Positions 10,784 through 40,324 of a stretch of DNA of 64,000 nt are shown one piece after another. Under the pieces are notes generated by a model that had not been told where the DNA came from, searched no databases, and saw only the letters and a program-made list of their open reading frames with translations. This DNA comes from a virus (Duplodnaviria > Caudoviricetes). A program made the position numbers and the translations under genes. Every line of letters begins with the position of its first letter. The stretch's first letter is position 1. The DNA is taken from the IMG/VR virus record IMGVR_UViG_2563366732_000001, positions 3,242 to 67,241 of that record; one strand, given 5' to 3'.

Positions 10784-10814
10784 AGAAGGGCGTTCAGAAA
10801 TGGACGTTCTTTTT
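10784..10814 (+). terminator. Intrinsic terminator
   Basis: AGAAGGGCGTTCA-GAAA-TGGACGTTCT followed by TTTT. Confidence 0.7.
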
Positions 10815-10822
10815 ATATATAA

Positions 10823-10878
10823 ATCTTTGTTTTGGTGTGACGGGCGGTGTGTAAATAACATAATATCAAAATAAGGAT
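10823..10878 (+). ncRNA. Candidate cis-regulatory leader hairpin carrying a 21-nt anti-16S rRNA sequence
   Basis: Core stem 10827-10838/10863-10874 (3 G-U pairs), extendable to 10823-10878 over the SD AAGGA; 24-nt loop; homologous copy at 33831-33880. Confidence 0.6.
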
Positions 10879-10886
10879 GCGATAAT

Positions 10887-11645
10887 ATGATGTTAAAACC
10901 ACCAATTAGTAGAATGGGGGGAAAAAGTAAGTTAAGAAAGACAATAATAAGTATGTTACCTGAGCATATTTGTTATGTAGAATTATTCTTTGGAGCAGGA
11001 TGGGTTTATTTTGGAAAGCAACCTGCAAAGGTTGAGGTTATAAATGATATAGATAAAGAATTAATAAATCTATTCAGAATGATAAAATATCATGCGCCAG
11101 AAGTTGAAAGGATGCTTCAATATGATTTTTCAGGAAGAGATATATTTGAAGAATATAAGAATGAGAGTATAGGAAACCTTACAGAGATAAATAGAGCTGT
11201 AAGGTTTTTATATTTGATAACGCAAAGTTTTGCAAGTAAATGTGGTAATTACGGTTATGGGACAAATACAAAACCAGGACAGCAAATATTTTATACTGAG
11301 ACACTAAAAAACTTGAAAGAGAGGTTGCGTAATACTTATGTTGAAAACCTAAGCTTTGAAAAAATAATAGATAAGTATGATAGGGAATATACATGCTTCT
11401 TTGCAGATCCGCCTTACTTTGAAACAGCAGGTTATGCTAATGACTTTGGGGAGAAAGAACATTTGTTACTTAGAAATAAGTTAAGCAATATCAAAGGCAA
11501 ATTTATTTTAACAATAAATGACCACGAAAAAGTAAGAGAGTGGTACAAGGATTTTAATATAAAAGAAGTTCAAGTAAATTATTCAGTATCAAGAGAAAAG
11601 AAGGCTAGAGGCAAGTATAAGGAATTGATTGTAACTAATTATTAG
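10887..11645 (+). CDS. DNA adenine methyltransferase (D12/Dam class), orphan
   Basis: RMGGKSKL, YVELFFGAG, EVINDID and FFADPPY motifs. Confidence 0.95.
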   Translation: MMLKPPISRMGGKSKLRKTIISMLPEHICYVELFFGAGWVYFGKQPAKVEVINDIDKELINLFRMIKYHAPEVERMLQYDFSGRDIFEEYKNESIGNLTEINRAVRFLYLITQSFASKCGNYGYGTNTKPGQQIFYTETLKNLKERLRNTYVENLSFEKIIDKYDREYTCFFADPPYFETAGYANDFGEKEHLLLRNKLSNIKGKFILTINDHEKVREWYKDFNIKEVQVNYSVSREKKARGKYKELIVTNY

Positions 11646-12415: not shown

Positions 12416-13168
12416 GTGCCAAGACAAAGGAGTCCAAATAGAGATAAGGCATTTCAAATTTATAAGGAACATAATGGAAATATTAATAATAGGGAAATTG
12501 CAAAGATTTTAGATATCCCAGAGAAAACAGTGGGAGGATGGAAATGCAAGGATAAATGGCAAGATAAATTGAATGGAGTACTCCAAAAGGAAAATTCAAA
12601 TAATACGGAGTACTCTAAACGTAAAAAAGGTGGTCAACCCAAAAATAAAAATTCAAAAGGTCATGAGGTTAGCGTGCCAAGAGGTAATAAAAACGCTGAA
12701 ACTCATGGCTTTTTTTCTAAGATTTTTCCACCCGAAACAATAGATATAGTTGAGGATATTATGATTAAAGATTCCTTGGATATGCTTTGGGAAAATATTA
12801 TAATCCAATATACAGCCATAGCAAGATCACAAAGAATTATGAATGTTAAAAATCAAGATGATTTAACTAAGGAACTTAAAAGGGAAAAAGAATCAAGTGG
12901 TGATGCATCTGACAGCTGGGAGAAAGAATATGAACTACAATTTGCTTGGGATAAGCAAGCAACATTTTTACAGGCACAGAGTAGAGCAATGTCAGAATTA
13001 AGAAATCTTATTAAGCAGTATGATGAAACACTTCATGCTAAATGGGAGCTTGCTACCGAAGAGCAAAAACTAAGGATTGAGAAGTTAAAGCTTGATATAG
13101 AAAAAGTGAAATCGCCCGAGAGTAATAAACCAATAGAAGTAGTTATAAAGCGAAAGAGTGAGGTATAA
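12416..13168 (+). CDS. Phage terminase small subunit (YqaS/XtmA-like)
   Basis: MPRQRSPNRDKAFQIY...W..KDKW N-terminal HTH; GGQPKNKN...GNKNAETHGFFSK; AWDKQATFL.AQSRAM. Confidence 0.9.
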   Translation: MPRQRSPNRDKAFQIYKEHNGNINNREIAKILDIPEKTVGGWKCKDKWQDKLNGVLQKENSNNTEYSKRKKGGQPKNKNSKGHEVSVPRGNKNAETHGFFSKIFPPETIDIVEDIMIKDSLDMLWENIIIQYTAIARSQRIMNVKNQDDLTKELKREKESSGDASDSWEKEYELQFAWDKQATFLQAQSRAMSELRNLIKQYDETLHAKWELATEEQKLRIEKLKLDIEKVKSPESNKPIEVVIKRKSEV

Positions 13169-31416: not shown

Positions 31417-32205
31417 GTGGGAAAAAGAAAGCATATAATATTTTACTCTGGTGGTATTGGAAGCTACTTTACAGCCAGAAGAGTTGTTGAAAAAGAAGGA
31501 AAGGAAAATGTAATACTTCTCTTCACAGATACAAAAATTGAAGATGAAGACTTATATAGATTTTTGGAAGAAACGAGTAAGAAACTGGGAGCCAAATTAA
31601 TTAAGTTGGCGGACGGAAGGACTCCTTGGGAAGTAGCAAAGGATGTAAAATTCCTACCAAATAGCAGAATTGCACAATGTAGTCATTTATTAAAACAGAA
31701 AATGTCTGATAAATGGATTAAAGATAATTTCAAACCGGAAGAATGTGTTTTATACCTTGGGATAGATTGGACAGAAGATCACAGAAGGGCAGCACCTAAA
31801 AAAAATTATCTACCCTATGAAGTAAAATTTCCAATGTGTGATAGACCTTTTCTTACCAAACCACAGATGCTAGATATATTAGAAAAGGAAGATGGAATCA
31901 AAAGACCAGCACTTTATAGATTGGGATTTGCACATAATAATTGTGGCGGTTTTTGTTTCAGAGCCGGACTTGGACATTTTGAAAATTTACTAAAGAAGAA
32001 CAGAAAGTTGTATTTATGGCATGAAGGTAAAGAGCAAGAAATGCGAGATTACTTAGGAAAAGACGTAACTATCTTAAGAAGAACCAGGAATGGACAAAGG
32101 ATTAATCTAACACTAAAGTCTCTCAGGGAAGAATTGGACAAAGGCGATCAATTAAGCTGGGATGAGCAAATAGATGTTGGTGGTTGTGGTTGCTTCTTAG
32201 ATTAG
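31417..32205 (+). CDS. PAPS-reductase/PP-loop family protein
   Basis: HIIFYSGGIGS PP-loop, LLFTDT, HNNCGGFC and C-terminal GGCGCF. Confidence 0.8.
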   Translation: MGKRKHIIFYSGGIGSYFTARRVVEKEGKENVILLFTDTKIEDEDLYRFLEETSKKLGAKLIKLADGRTPWEVAKDVKFLPNSRIAQCSHLLKQKMSDKWIKDNFKPEECVLYLGIDWTEDHRRAAPKKNYLPYEVKFPMCDRPFLTKPQMLDILEKEDGIKRPALYRLGFAHNNCGGFCFRAGLGHFENLLKKNRKLYLWHEGKEQEMRDYLGKDVTILRRTRNGQRINLTLKSLREELDKGDQLSWDEQIDVGGCGCFLD

Positions 32206-33213: not shown

Positions 33214-33660
33214 TTGAAAGATCACATAAGAGACTATACAATTGCAGCATTTAGATTCTATGCTTCAAGGGGAATATCGGCTGATGAATATAAAAAAATA
33301 ATTTATGATGCAGCACTGGAAAACTATGAAAGAAAAATGAATGGATGTGGTATAAGTTTTCCAACAGAAACAGCAATAATAGCCGCTGAAAATGAGGTTA
33401 CCCAGAGACTTGCAGAAATAAATGATATGGAAGCCGTAGAAATGACAATGGCAGAACTAAGAGCAACATCAAAAATATATAGTGTACATGCTATAGAAAT
33501 TGTATATTTTAAGGACGCAGATAAAGAACTACAAAAGGGGGATATTAGTAATAGGGTTCATGAAGCAGTATTAAGTATTCCAATGGGCGAGGCAACAGTA
33601 TATAGGTGTCTAAGTAAAGCAAGAGAATTATTTGCAGAAAAAAGGGGATTAAGAATTTAA
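33214..33660 (+). CDS. Putative late-gene transcriptional regulator
   Basis: C-terminal HTH-like EATVYRCLSKARELFAEKRGL; syntenic with 7229..7657 and followed by the same TGAAAGTTGATA motif. Confidence 0.7.
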   Translation: MKDHIRDYTIAAFRFYASRGISADEYKKIIYDAALENYERKMNGCGISFPTETAIIAAENEVTQRLAEINDMEAVEMTMAELRATSKIYSVHAIEIVYFKDADKELQKGDISNRVHEAVLSIPMGEATVYRCLSKARELFAEKRGLRI

Positions 33661-33732
33661 TTGAAAGTTGATAGTACAAGGGGGATGTCAAGAGGTATAA
33701 TGTGTACAGTTACAAAAAGTGAATAGAGGAGA

Positions 33733-33762
33733 GGAACATTCAGAAATGAGTGTTCCTTTTTT
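33733..33762 (+). terminator. Intrinsic terminator just downstream of the putative late promoter
   Basis: GGAACATTCA-GAAA-TGAGTGTTCC followed by TTTTTT. Confidence 0.75.
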
Positions 33763-33776
33763 CATGTCTAAGATAG

Positions 33777-33800
33777 TTATTCACAACATATTGTGGATAG
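33777..33800. promoter_or_regulatory. Inverted pair of DnaA-box-like 9-mers
   Basis: TTATTCACA (fits TTWTNCACA), 6-bp spacer, then TGTGGATAG (reverse complement of CTATCCACA). Confidence 0.5.
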
Positions 33801-33830
33801 TGTATATAAGTAATGCTATATATTGTATTA

Positions 33831-33885
33831 CTTGCTTTGATATGACGGGCGGTGTGTAAACAACCTAATATCAAAACAAGGGGAG
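33831..33885 (+). ncRNA. Second copy of the methylase leader hairpin, with a 16-nt anti-16S sequence
   Basis: Stem 33831-33843/33868-33880 (12 of 13 pairs); 24-nt loop; SD AAGGGGAG overlaps the 3' arm. Confidence 0.6.
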
Positions 33886-33893
33886 ATGCACAA

Positions 33894-34658
33894 ATGATAA
33901 AAATGTTAAAACCACCTATTAGTAGAATGGGAGGAAAAAGCAAGTTAAGAAAGACAATAATAAGTATGTTACCTGAGCATGTTTGTTATGTAGAATTATT
34001 CTTTGGAGCAGGATGGGTGTATTTTGGTAAGGAGCCTGCAAAGGTCGAAGTTATAAATGATATAGATAAAGAGTTAATAAATCTATTCAGAATGATAAAA
34101 TATCATGCACCAGAAGTTGAAAGAATGCTTCAATATGATTTTTCAGGAAGGGATATATTTGAGGAATACAAGAATGAGTGCGTAGGGAACCTTACAGAGA
34201 TAAATAGATCTGTAAGGTTTTTATATTTAGTAACTCAAAGTTTTGCAAGTAAAGGTGGTAATTATGGTTATGGGACAAATACAAAACCTGGACAGCAGAT
34301 ATTTTATATTGAAGCACTAAAAGATTTGAAAGAGAGGCTGAGTAATACTTATGTTGAAAATTTAACCTTTGAAAAAGTAATAGATAAGTATGACAGGGAA
34401 TATACTTGTTTCTTTGCAGATCCGCCGTATTTTGAAACAGCAGGTTATGGCAATAAATTTGGAGAGAAAGAACATCTGTTACTTAGAGATAAGTTGAGCA
34501 ATATCAAAGGTAAATTTATATTAACAATAAATGACCATGAAAAAGTAAGGCAATGGTATAAGGATTTTAATATCAAGGAAGTTGAAGTGAATTATTCTAT
34601 TTCTAGAGAACAGAAGGCTAGAGGTAAGTATAAAGAACTTATTATAAAAAACTATTAA
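33894..34658 (+). CDS. DNA adenine methyltransferase (D12/Dam class), close paralog of 10887..11645
   Basis: Same motifs (RMGGKSKL, FFADPPY); near-identical protein. Confidence 0.95.
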   Translation: MIKMLKPPISRMGGKSKLRKTIISMLPEHVCYVELFFGAGWVYFGKEPAKVEVINDIDKELINLFRMIKYHAPEVERMLQYDFSGRDIFEEYKNECVGNLTEINRSVRFLYLVTQSFASKGGNYGYGTNTKPGQQIFYIEALKDLKERLSNTYVENLTFEKVIDKYDREYTCFFADPPYFETAGYGNKFGEKEHLLLRDKLSNIKGKFILTINDHEKVRQWYKDFNIKEVEVNYSISREQKARGKYKELIIKNY

Positions 34659-38066: not shown

Positions 38067-38603
38067 ATGGGTAGAAATGCAAAACCAATTAATTTATTAT
38101 TGGCACAGGGCAAGAAACACTTGACCAAAGCCGAAATTGACAAAAGAAAAGATACCGAAATTAAATTAGGAAATAATAAATTAGTATGCCCTAATTATAT
38201 CAAAAATAACGTAAATGCATATAAGAAGTGGAAAGAAATCGTTAAAATTTATAAAGAAGTTGATTTTGTTTCTAGTGGAGATACTGGATTGTTATCAAGA
38301 TACTGTATGACACATAGTGAATATTTGAATTTATGTGAAACTAGGGACAGATTGAGCGGATTACACGCAGATTGGTCACAATATCAAAATATATTTCCAG
38401 AAGAATTTCAAGAAACTGTTGAAAGAGTTTTATATTCAAATACAGATCTTCAAATGGAGACAGCAATTAATAAAAAAATGGATATGCTTATAAAAATGGA
38501 AGATAGACTATTCTTAAATCCATTATCAAAAGTGAAAAATGTGCCAAAACAGGAACCTAAACAAACACCTAGCACATTTGACCAAAAGTTTGGTGATATA
38601 TGA
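38067..38603 (+). CDS. Terminase small subunit (P27-like)
   Basis: MGRNAKPINL...KKHLTKAEI..RK..E; EDRLFLNPLS. Confidence 0.85.
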   Translation: MGRNAKPINLLLAQGKKHLTKAEIDKRKDTEIKLGNNKLVCPNYIKNNVNAYKKWKEIVKIYKEVDFVSSGDTGLLSRYCMTHSEYLNLCETRDRLSGLHADWSQYQNIFPEEFQETVERVLYSNTDLQMETAINKKMDMLIKMEDRLFLNPLSKVKNVPKQEPKQTPSTFDQKFGDI

Positions 38604-40324
38604 GCCTTTTAGAAGAACTAATTCAATACAGTAACGATATAGTGGAAGGTAATATAGTAGCTTGCAAAAAACACAAATGGGCTTGTCAAAGATTTTTAAA
38701 TGATTTAGCAAGAGAAGGTACAGAGGAATTCCCTTATGTTTTTGATGAAGAAAAAGCAAATAACTTTTTAGATTGGATGAGATTTTTCAAACATACTAAA
38801 GGACCATTGGCAGGGACACTTATAGAACCCCATATTATTCAAAGGTTTAATTTTGGGAATATATATGGATGGATAAAAATAAAAAATGGTTATAGGAGAT
38901 TTAAGAAATCATACTGGCAAGTAGGGAGGAAAAATGCGAAGTCTCAAAGTGAAGCTTGCGTTGGTAATTATGAAACTTTTGCTGATGGTGAAAGCGCAAG
39001 TGAAGTATATTGTGCTGCAACAAAAACTAAACAAGCAAAAATAGTATGGAACGAAGCAAGATTACAAGTTAAAAGGTGCCAATTTTTGAAAGGTAAAAAT
39101 AAGATAGCCAATGGTCAAATAATTCATATTAAATCAGACTCTTACATGACATATCTTAGTAAAGAAGATGGTAAAACAGGTGATGGATTTAATCCTCAGT
39201 GTGGAATAATTGATGAATATCACGCCCATCCAACAAGTGAAATGTATGACATTATTGTATCTGGTATGGGTTCAAGAACGCAACCATTAATGATGATTAT
39301 TACAACTGCTGGATATGAATTAAATCATCCTTGCTATTCGGTTGAGTATAAATATGTTAGTAATATATTGAACCCCGACAGTACTACAGAAAATGACGAA
39401 TATTATGTAATGATTAATGAGCTTGATAAAGACGAAAAGGGTAATTTATTAGATGATATAAAGGACGAAAAAGTATGGCTTAAAGCCAACCCAATAGTAG
39501 CTGAAAATGAAGTTGGACTTGATTATTTAAGAGGAGAGCTGAAAGCGGCACTAGATGCACCTGAGAAAATGAAAACATTTCTTACTAAAAACATGGATGT
39601 TTGGATTGATAAAAGAGCAAGTGGATATATGGAAATGGATAGATGGAAAGCTTGTGGTGATGATAAATTTGATTTAAATATATTAAAGAATGCAGAATGT
39701 ATAGCAGGTTTAGATTTATCGGCAAAGATTGATTTAACATCTATTGATTGTGAGTTTAAACTTGACGATGGAAAAAGGGTTGTATTGAGCCATAGTTTTA
39801 TGCCAAAAGATAGACTTGCAGCTAAAATGGACCAAGACAAAGTACGCTATGATCTATGGGAAGAGCAAGGATGGCTTACATTAACTCCAGGAAGTGTAGT
39901 TGATTATAAATATATTAAAAAGTATATCAAAGACAAGGAACGGCTATATAGATGGAGGTTTAAAGAAATAGTATATGACCCATGGAATGCTACACAATTT
40001 GCTCAAGATATGGAATCAGACGGATATACTATGGTTGAAATGCGACAAGGGATAAGAAGCCTAGGAGAAGGTACAAAGGATTTTAGAGACGAAGTTTATG
40101 CAGGTAATATAATTCATAACAACAATCCAGTTTTAACATGGGCACTAGGAAATGCGGTTACTAAAGAAGATGCTAACGAAAATATTATGTTAGATAAAGC
40201 TAAAAGTACATTTAGGATTGATCCAGCTGCTGCAGCTATGAATGCACATGCAAGAATGATTATTATTAATCCTAATGCTGGACATTCAGTTTATGCAAAA
40301 CGTGGAATGAGAAGTTTATTATAA
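38600..40324 (+). CDS. Terminase large subunit
   Basis: QVGRKNAKSQ Walker A, GIIDEYHAH Walker B, GLDLSAKIDLT, RIDP.AA. Confidence 0.97.
   Translation: MSLLEELIQYSNDIVEGNIVACKKHKWACQRFLNDLAREGTEEFPYVFDEEKANNFLDWMRFFKHTKGPLAGTLIEPHIIQRFNFGNIYGWIKIKNGYRRFKKSYWQVGRKNAKSQSEACVGNYETFADGESASEVYCAATKTKQAKIVWNEARLQVKRCQFLKGKNKIANGQIIHIKSDSYMTYLSKEDGKTGDGFNPQCGIIDEYHAHPTSEMYDIIVSGMGSRTQPLMMIITTAGYELNHPCYSVEYKYVSNILNPDSTTENDEYYVMINELDKDEKGNLLDDIKDEKVWLKANPIVAENEVGLDYLRGELKAALDAPEKMKTFLTKNMDVWIDKRASGYMEMDRWKACGDDKFDLNILKNAECIAGLDLSAKIDLTSIDCEFKLDDGKRVVLSHSFMPKDRLAAKMDQDKVRYDLWEEQGWLTLTPGSVVDYKYIKKYIKDKERLYRWRFKEIVYDPWNATQFAQDMESDGYTMVEMRQGIRSLGEGTKDFRDEVYAGNIIHNNNPVLTWALGNAVTKEDANENIMLDKAKSTFRIDPAAAAMNAHARMIIINPNAGHSVYAKRGMRSLL

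Follow-up and report, generated by a model that had tools for sequence, protein, structure and literature searches.

Several described RNAs stand close to the element reported here. Hairpins that sequester the Shine-Dalgarno (SD) site, such as translational operators and fourU-type thermometers, pair a U-rich strand with AAGGA or AGGAG, which keeps the ribosome-binding site closed as the default state. The epsilon enhancer of T7 gene 10 and the downstream box, both proposed to raise translation, are parts of an mRNA with complementarity to regions of 16S rRNA other than the anti-SD sequence. The termination upstream ribosome-binding sites (TURBS) of caliciviruses are structured viral mRNA elements with a motif complementary to small-subunit rRNA, which is thought to tether the subunit near the start codon; they are eukaryotic, target helix 26 of 18S rRNA and act in termination-reinitiation. 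In CopA/CopT and in synthetic toehold or loop-initiated riboregulators, a loop nucleates pairing in trans and strand invasion frees a sequestered ribosome-binding site. Besides, the D12-methyl RNA motif (Rfam RF02950) is, like the leader described below, a candidate cis-regulatory RNA located before D12 genes. Here we analyse a leader hairpin that occurs twice in a 64,000-nt stretch of the IMG/VR virus record IMGVR_UViG_2563366732_000001 (Caudoviricetes), which is called the window in the following. The flagged copy covers 33831-33885, its counterpart is called copy 1, and each stands before a gene for a D12-class DNA methyltransferase. The two copies very probably belong to an uncatalogued family of leader RNAs before DNA-methylase genes of Clostridiaceae prophages, and our best reading of the sequences is that these leaders would act in cis, before orphan DNA-methyltransferase genes of the D12 (adenine) or C5 (cytosine) type. 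G labels denote genomes (G000 is the genome to which the window belongs) and L labels denote loci or contigs.

Two leader copies and their likeness to antisense 16S rRNA

A first-pass annotation of the window had reported that 33843-33858 (TGACGGGCGGTGTGTA) is antisense to 16S rRNA. This observation is confirmed: the segment is the reverse complement of UACACACCGCCCGUCA in the 16S rRNA of the genus, which corresponds to E. coli positions 1393-1408. The 16S sequence CCUUGUACACACCGCCCGUCACACCAUGAGAG was read in two other genomes of the genus, the source of the reference, and the search with SSU_rRNA_bacteria (RF00177) found no 16S gene in the own assembled genome G000, despite its four leaders. 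It turned out that TGACGGGCGGTGTGTA has exactly two matches in the window (10838 and 33843), both on the + strand, where shuffles expect 0.01. The antisense match of copy 1 is longer, with 21 nt (10833-10853) exact to 16S 1393-1413. A second block of complementarity, UUAACC(C/U)AA, had not been seen by the annotation; it is the exact antisense of UUGGGUUAA at 16S 1085-1093, and in the degenerate form of the flagged copy 7 contiguous pairs with 16S remain possible, one G-U among them. The parts of the two leaders are listed here, where R1 is the covariance model of the family introduced below and MFE stands for minimum free energy.

33831-33843, + strand: 5' arm of the leader hairpin, CUUGCUUUGAUAU (MFE fold; R1 55.1 bits, E = 1.4e-9)
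33844-33867, + strand: loop of the leader hairpin, 24 nt (fold)
33843-33858, + strand: block 1, a 16-nt exact antisense to 16S 1393-1408, with the family-wide core GGUGUGUA at 33851-33858
33860-33868, + strand: block 2, ACAACCUAA, degenerate relative to the consensus of the family (UUAACCCAA), which is antisense to 16S 1085-1093
33868-33880, + strand: 3' arm of the leader hairpin, AUAUCAAAACAAG, which runs into the SD site (MFE fold)
33879-33885, + strand: SD site AGGGGAG, 8 nt 5' of ATG 33894 (sequence reading)
10823-10878, + strand: leader hairpin of copy 1 (R1 65.4 bits), with a degenerate block 2 at 10855-10863
10873-10877, + strand: SD site AAGGA of copy 1, wholly within the 3' arm

The flagged hairpin folds with -17.5 kcal/mol (z = -2.9). 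Three G-U pairs of copy 1 had been described as G-C, A-U and A-U in the flagged copy, and the alignment agrees with this, as it does with a loop of 24 nt in both copies whose first 17 bases are identical; over the whole length, the loops differ at 2 of 24 positions. A C-A mismatch between 33835 and 33876 is new in the flagged copy, and the annotation does not mention it. Its statement that the sequence outside the hairpin is unrelated between the copies is wrong, since an upstream terminator hairpin with loop TTCAGAAATG is homologous between them and the genes are 89.8% identical. Because of this gene identity, which amounts to 70% at the four-fold sites of the two D12 genes, the likeness of the two loops (22 of 24 identical bases; binomial about 0.01 by our own arithmetic) goes only mildly beyond the neutral level. 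The overlap of the SD with the 3' arm holds for copy 1, where the paired probability of the SD is 1.00, while in the flagged copy the SD only touches the arm (0.27).

Distribution and conservation of the leader family

The own genome contains four leader copies, two of them in the window and two elsewhere, the latter before genes of C5-cytosine methylases (PF00145). These two C5 genes are disrupted or truncated (L001 1549-2448 on contig C3 and L004 421-1466 on contig C20): one stops after 48 codons and is followed by a 234-aa C-terminal open reading frame, and the other is a 192-aa N-terminal half.

When 401 genomes of the family were searched, the near-exact 33-nt loop was restricted to the window genus, where three of eight genomes contain it. 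Diverged leaders were found via relatives of the D12 methylase in IMG/VR, whose upstream DNA was read. Generally, the diverged leaders of phage contigs have a common layout, namely a terminator, a U-rich arm, a large loop, an A-rich arm, the SD and the start codon, and their arm sequences vary widely (UUUGGUU/AAUCAAA, UUUUGUU/AACAGAA and AAAACAG/CUGUUUU). From 33 distinct leaders we built the covariance model R1 (66 positions), which gave 38 matches in 88 sources, all of them abutting a methylase start except one weak match (L114, E = 0.5). Among the Clostridiaceae, R1 matched 10 of 151 genomes and 9 of 59 sampled genera, while none of 146 genomes from other Clostridia families was matched and G000 was the sole match in a 151-genome sample of the class. 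The same leader lineage can precede a D12 or a C5 gene (L113 versus L193 and L223; L094 versus L237), and therefore the leader is associated with DNA methylases in general rather than with a single gene family. In decayed copies that lie beside pseudogenes or without a gene (L246-L249), the blocks are eroded. The annotation had argued for selection and against primer contamination or neutral rDNA debris, and the family bears this out, as three genomes of the genus, 29 related phage contigs and 9 genera all have the leader at this one place, in front of methylase genes; neutral rDNA debris is unlikely.

The loop is constant within the window genus only. Family-wide, two blocks are kept, GGUGUG(UA) and UUAACC(C/U)AA, with 0-11 variable bases between them, and the first of these is the antisense of 16S positions 1393-1400. 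When the 33 distinct leaders are compared with the 16S of the genus, nearly all have their longest antisense match within 1390-1413; L094, L096 and L107 are among the few exceptions, with an equal or longer 16S match elsewhere. The complementarity in register with block 1 reaches 21 nt (1393-1413) in the window genus, L086, L087 and L111, and its other extents are 1395-1410 (16 nt), 1399-1413 (15 nt), 1391-1402 (12 nt), 1390-1400 (11 nt), 1391-1400 (10 nt) and 1393-1400 (8 nt). In 20,000 dinucleotide shuffles of the antisense 16S, the probability was 0.0063 for block 2, 0.0145 for the core of block 1 and 5e-5 for both, in a calculation that is post hoc. Both sense blocks close together were found at no other locus of the own assembled genome.

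Three further candidates were rejected. The segment TTGTTACGA, which matches 16S 1495-1503 and belongs to the 5' arm in L096 and L113, was not counted as a third anti-16S block because about 0.4 chance 9-mers are expected per leader by our own arithmetic; other chance 16S matches of 9-11 nt are visible among the leaders. An internal GGU/ACC helix of the loop is not conserved and is broken by W1 and L087. Finally, reading the blocks as a promoter meets with variable block spacing, a poor -10 match and a scan that found nothing.

A hairpin that encloses both blocks folds in every leader, with a loop of 24-35 nt. On the model-fitted alignment 69.3% of the stem cells are paired versus 62.2% in shuffles (0 of 500 reach this value), and 46 cells are changed on both sides versus 24 expected (again 0 of 500), with double changes at 13 of 15 pairs; as the leaders are related, these stem statistics overstate independence and are to be taken as support rather than as probabilities. 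In slid registers, 41-55% of the cells are paired. In an arm-swap test the cognate arms average -11.5 kcal/mol versus -8.9 for non-cognate arms (permutation p < 1e-4). RNAalifold returned no structure on the MAFFT alignment, as the offset between the stem and the conserved blocks shifts from lineage to lineage, and a hand-set structure, the covariance model and the arm-swap test were used instead.

In view of this conservation the interpretation given by the annotation is partly supported. Selection on both the stem and the loop had been suggested; the stems have indeed changed and still pair, but the loop is not invariant, as only the GGUGUG core and UUAACC(C/U)AA persist. A broader alignment had been named as the means to decide the matter, and it contains covariation as well as loops with much less 16S complementarity (ACGAGUUAGGUGUGUG, AGGUGUGUAC, GAUGGGCGGUGUGA and GACGGGCGGCGAAA), which goes half-way towards the refutation that the annotation had set out. 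A pseudoknot between GGCGGU of the loop and ACCACC in the first codons, offered as a weak alternative, fails since the same leader precedes C5-methylase genes without ACCACC.

Direct sequence scans were also run. The exact 21-mer GACGGGCGGTGTGTAAAYAAC had no match in the IMG/VR scan. The 16-mer GACGGGCGGTGTGTAA had 68 matches in the scan of genome contigs, and besides a metagenome-assembled genome (MAG) of the same genus, all of them are 16S variants or chance matches in coding sequence. The two-block pattern GGTGTGTAN{0,12}TTAACCCAA had 71 matches in IMG/VR, about the number expected by chance according to our own arithmetic, and only about 17 of them are the leader; a group of 14 contigs among these matches resembles coding sequence. 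Among named phages, phiSM101 is the sole match, through the gene, and its upstream module differs.

Two other elements came to light. In freshwater phage contigs (L170 1990-2060; also L177, L202, L204 and L238) an intergenic GGTGTGTAACACTTAACCCAAG stands before a small hairpin and a gene start, and ACTTAACCCAA within it is an 11-nt antisense to 16S 1085-1095; this element may be due to chance, or may be an unrelated leader with the same two blocks. Besides, a second and unrelated conserved module, aaaggcaaagtagg and ttttgcctatttttacatcaaaagaa with a hairpin between them, lies ~90 nt before other clostridial-phage methylase starts, both D12 (L093, L100, L105, L108, L114, L130, L137 and L138) and C5 (L152-L156 and L158), and has no Rfam match.

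Proposed translational control and competing explanations

Since the 5' arm, rich in U, is paired to an A-rich 3' arm reaching the SD, the ribosome-binding site is hidden, or nearly so, by default. The paired probability of the SD has a mean of 0.75 over the 33 leaders, and the leader probably acts by SD occlusion. In many members the 5' arm is itself the U-tract of the preceding terminator, from which we infer that, in these members, only read-through transcripts would carry the gene and would be translationally closed at first.

The explanation that we tentatively put forward for the whole element is a translational-control leader whose loop would recognise 16S rRNA, and direct pairing with 16S is a possible way for the loop to work. 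By this mechanism the hairpin would hide the SD by default and display the two-block loop. The loop would base-pair with 16S, either in a 30S subunit with an unlocked neck or decoding region, or in 16S before or after the mature ribosome. Pairing would then tether the small subunit beside the SD, separate the 5' arm from the 3' arm, or do both, and the translation of the methylase would be switched on. A bolder form of the proposal, which we regard as conceivable but doubtful, is that clostridial phages use a second, SD-independent pairing between mRNA leader and 16S (1390-1413 plus 1085-1093) as a gate of methylase translation, in which case the leader would either sense free 16S or capture a small subunit whose state is non-canonical or immature.

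The target segments, both universally conserved, are the strand of helix 28 (h28) and the decoding centre, and helix 37 (h37). Around the cleft that takes up the SD duplex stand h20, the 723 loop, h28 and h37 (PMC4611024), and therefore the three complementary parts of the leader, i.e. the extended SD, block 1 and block 2, are directed at the same part of the 30S subunit. The SD 3' of the hairpin is an extended one, AAGGAGUGAU or AAGGAAGUGAU (for instance in L094, L096, L111 and L113), and apart from one bulge or mismatch it is the complement of the 16S 3' end AUCACCUCCUU. In energy terms a duplex with a free 16S fragment would be favoured over the hairpin by 18-25 kcal/mol, which does not show that pairing happens.

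A number of points weigh against the pairing of the loop with 16S. In the mature 30S subunit 1393-1396 are paired in h28, 1401-1408 in h44 and GGG 1087-1089 in h37, so that pairing would need an unfolded state. States with a destabilised or unfolded helix 44 and decoding centre exist (bioRxiv 10.1101/525360), which is not proof of pairing. An experiment with an inverted rRNA sequence refuted the downstream box, the best-known earlier proposal of mRNA-16S pairing other than the SD (PMC4611024). Across the family, the conservation of block 1 is limited to about 6-8 nt, and many members contain substitutions that break the 16S pairing, e.g. GAGUGGCGG and GGUAUGAA. Block 2 is degenerate in both window copies, the flagged copy combines this with an SD that is barely sequestered, and the substitutions in block 2 are mostly transitions, which wobble-compatibility and ordinary transition bias fit equally. 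The relatedness of the leaders, which tempers the stem statistics, counts here too. Finally, given the collinearity of the blocks with antisense rDNA, shared ancestry from a single captured piece of rDNA could account for the likeness with no pairing today, and a single ancient capture followed by exaptation is possible.

Other explanations keep parts of this picture. With the same family and the same SD-hiding hairpin, the loop blocks could be the docking site of a protein or small ligand, such as a phage or host translational regulator, S-adenosylmethionine (SAM) or S-adenosylhomocysteine (SAH), and the antisense-16S likeness would then be a trace of origin. The link to two unrelated SAM-dependent enzyme families would suit a regulator that senses something common to them. 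Docking would also accord with the conservation of short cores only, the longer 16S complementarity being broken in many members, and with loops that are partly self-paired in the ensemble (blocks 50-60% unpaired). Docking is nevertheless rather unlikely in our judgement, as the leaders match none of the known riboswitch and protein-binding RNA families at E up to 10, a block spacing of 0-11 nt and the lack of a co-varying internal helix are unlike a defined ligand pocket, and neither the lineage-specific extension of the complementarity in different directions nor the match of both blocks to 16S is explained by it. It is improbable that the leader, or a fragment processed from it, serves as an antisense RNA in trans against host 16S or pre-16S, where it would disturb the assembly or function of ribosomes as a phage device of host takeover or exclusion, with the position before methylases being incidental. 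Such a role would make use of the 16-21 nt of perfect antisense to the decoding-centre strand, the strongly favourable duplex with a free 16S fragment and the destabilised helix 44 and decoding-centre states mentioned above (bioRxiv 10.1101/525360). It is hard to reconcile with an element that occurs strictly at methylase starts, where it overlaps the SD, that has no promoter or terminator of its own delimiting a small RNA (by scan and sequence reading), and whose complementarity is only 8-10 nt in many members. Moreover, rRNA vastly outnumbers any mRNA leader.

Equally improbable is a functionless relic, in which antisense rDNA was captured upstream of a methylase cassette and carried along by module recombination, with only the SD-occluding stem under selection. 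Its appeal lies in the collinearity of the blocks with antisense rDNA, in the close paralogy of the two window copies and in the shuffling of the module between D12 and C5 genes with junctions just past the first codons, where ATGATAAAAATG is shared. Against it, the two cores persist across lineages whose arms and spacers are wholly replaced, a relic would not be expected to retain just those rRNA blocks that are universally conserved, and the erosion of the blocks in the decayed copies is as expected if intact copies are selected. As to an artefact, the 16-mer coincides in part with a classic site of universal primers and probes, which might suggest contamination by a 16S primer of the 1392R/1406R type, or a chimeric assembly. 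This is ruled out for practical purposes: homologous positions are occupied in the independent assemblies G000, G121 and MAG G194 and in many IMG/VR contigs, the flanks are unique, the segment sits inside a co-varying hairpin, and it departs from 16S right after GTGTGTA (A, not C).

The family would define a new and easily testable type of cis-regulatory RNA controlling phage DNA methylases, enzymes by which phages escape host restriction and can reprogramme the epigenetics of the host. If the loop does pair with 16S, it would be a natural bacterial mRNA-rRNA pairing beyond the SD, a matter contested since the downstream-box debate, and it would involve the decoding-centre strand, which is usually thought inaccessible. 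Since the leader is short (~55 nt) and portable between genes, the question could be resolved quickly by assay and probing work.

Gene surroundings and comparison with known RNAs

The following features lie around the two leaders in the window.

33894-34658, + strand: gene of a D12-class N6-adenine DNA methyltransferase (Pfam PF02086, E = 9e-26)
10887-11645, + strand: gene of a paralogous D12 DNA methyltransferase (PF02086; 89.8% nucleotide identity to 33903-34658)
33726-33768, + strand: intrinsic-terminator-like hairpin with a U-run, closing the preceding gene 33214-33660 (-23.3 kcal/mol, z = -6.7)
10785-10813, + strand: terminator-like hairpin with a U-run before copy 1 (fold)
33785-33830, + strand: spacer with two operator-like half-palindromes, ACAACATATTGT and CTATATATTGT (sequence reading)

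The PF02086 genes begin 8-27 nt past the hairpins, and the D12 gene behind the flagged leader likely starts at ATG 33894 (MIKMLKPP...), ATG 33903 being possible as well. Its first codons ATGATAAAAATG (MIKM; 33894-33905) are common to the C5 gene of L001 (1549-1560). This sharing locates a recombination junction immediately after the coding sequence begins, so that the leader and the start codon move as one module. The terminator hairpin 33726-33768 aligns with 10785-10813 and shows compensatory changes in the stem. The leader hairpin itself differs from an intrinsic terminator in that the SD and the start codon follow it and a U-run is lacking.

Between the terminator and the leader, half-palindromes (ACA[A/G]CATATTGT) occur in the flagged copy, in L001 1430-1482 and in the G194 copies (L007 and L009), and they are absent before copy 1. 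Judged by its sequence, this spacer looks like an inserted promoter or operator module; a simple scan found no sigma-70-like promoter. Packaging genes lie just 3' of each cassette (small terminase 12416-13168, large terminase 38600-40324), and therefore the window holds two prophage-like regions with paralogous methylase cassettes. A gene like phosphoadenosine-phosphosulfate reductase (phrog_424; 31417-32205) belongs to the prophage region and lies 5' of the second methylase cassette. Elsewhere, tRNA genes were seen about 250 nt 5' of the leader in two phage contigs that are related (L096 1187-1257 and L113 1155-1243), the one of L113 with a 29-nt insertion in the anticodon-arm region of the alignment.

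For comparison with catalogued RNAs, we searched Rfam 15. It turned out that the window leaders had no match at E up to 10, riboswitch families (SAM and SAH classes) included, and that neither 18 diverse leader loci (E up to 1) nor 19 further loci (E up to 0.1) had one. The D12-methyl motif is nearly as long as the leader model (64 versus 66 positions), but its covariance model (gathering threshold 57 bits) recognises no leader, neither the window copies nor 37 related loci, and it has no match in the whole own genome or in 151 Clostridia genomes. The leader family is not RF02950 as modelled, a comparison that was made by model only and leaves room for a very distant relationship. The likeness to 16S is limited to 16-21 nt and a 9-nt block, both antisense, and by RF00177 the leader is not a fragment or pseudogene of a 16S gene.

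With the SD-sequestering hairpins, the leader has in common an SD paired in a helix and compensatory change that supports this helix. Those hairpins need no large conserved loop, whereas the loop of the leader holds its most conserved bases, which are antisense to rRNA. Conserved complementarity to an rRNA segment, as in the SD, epsilon and TURBS elements, is present too. The epsilon enhancer and the downstream box are single sites of 9-15 nt directed at helix 17 or 44, while the leader has two sites of up to 21 nt in a loop upstream of the SD. Unlike in TURBS, a terminator and ~100 nt part the upstream stop codon from the start, and unlike in riboregulators of the CopA/CopT type, the proposed trigger would be rRNA itself and not a dedicated small RNA. 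In conclusion, the leader is in kind an SD-hiding hairpin, and its anti-rRNA loop resembles the epsilon enhancer, the downstream box and TURBS and belongs to none of them.
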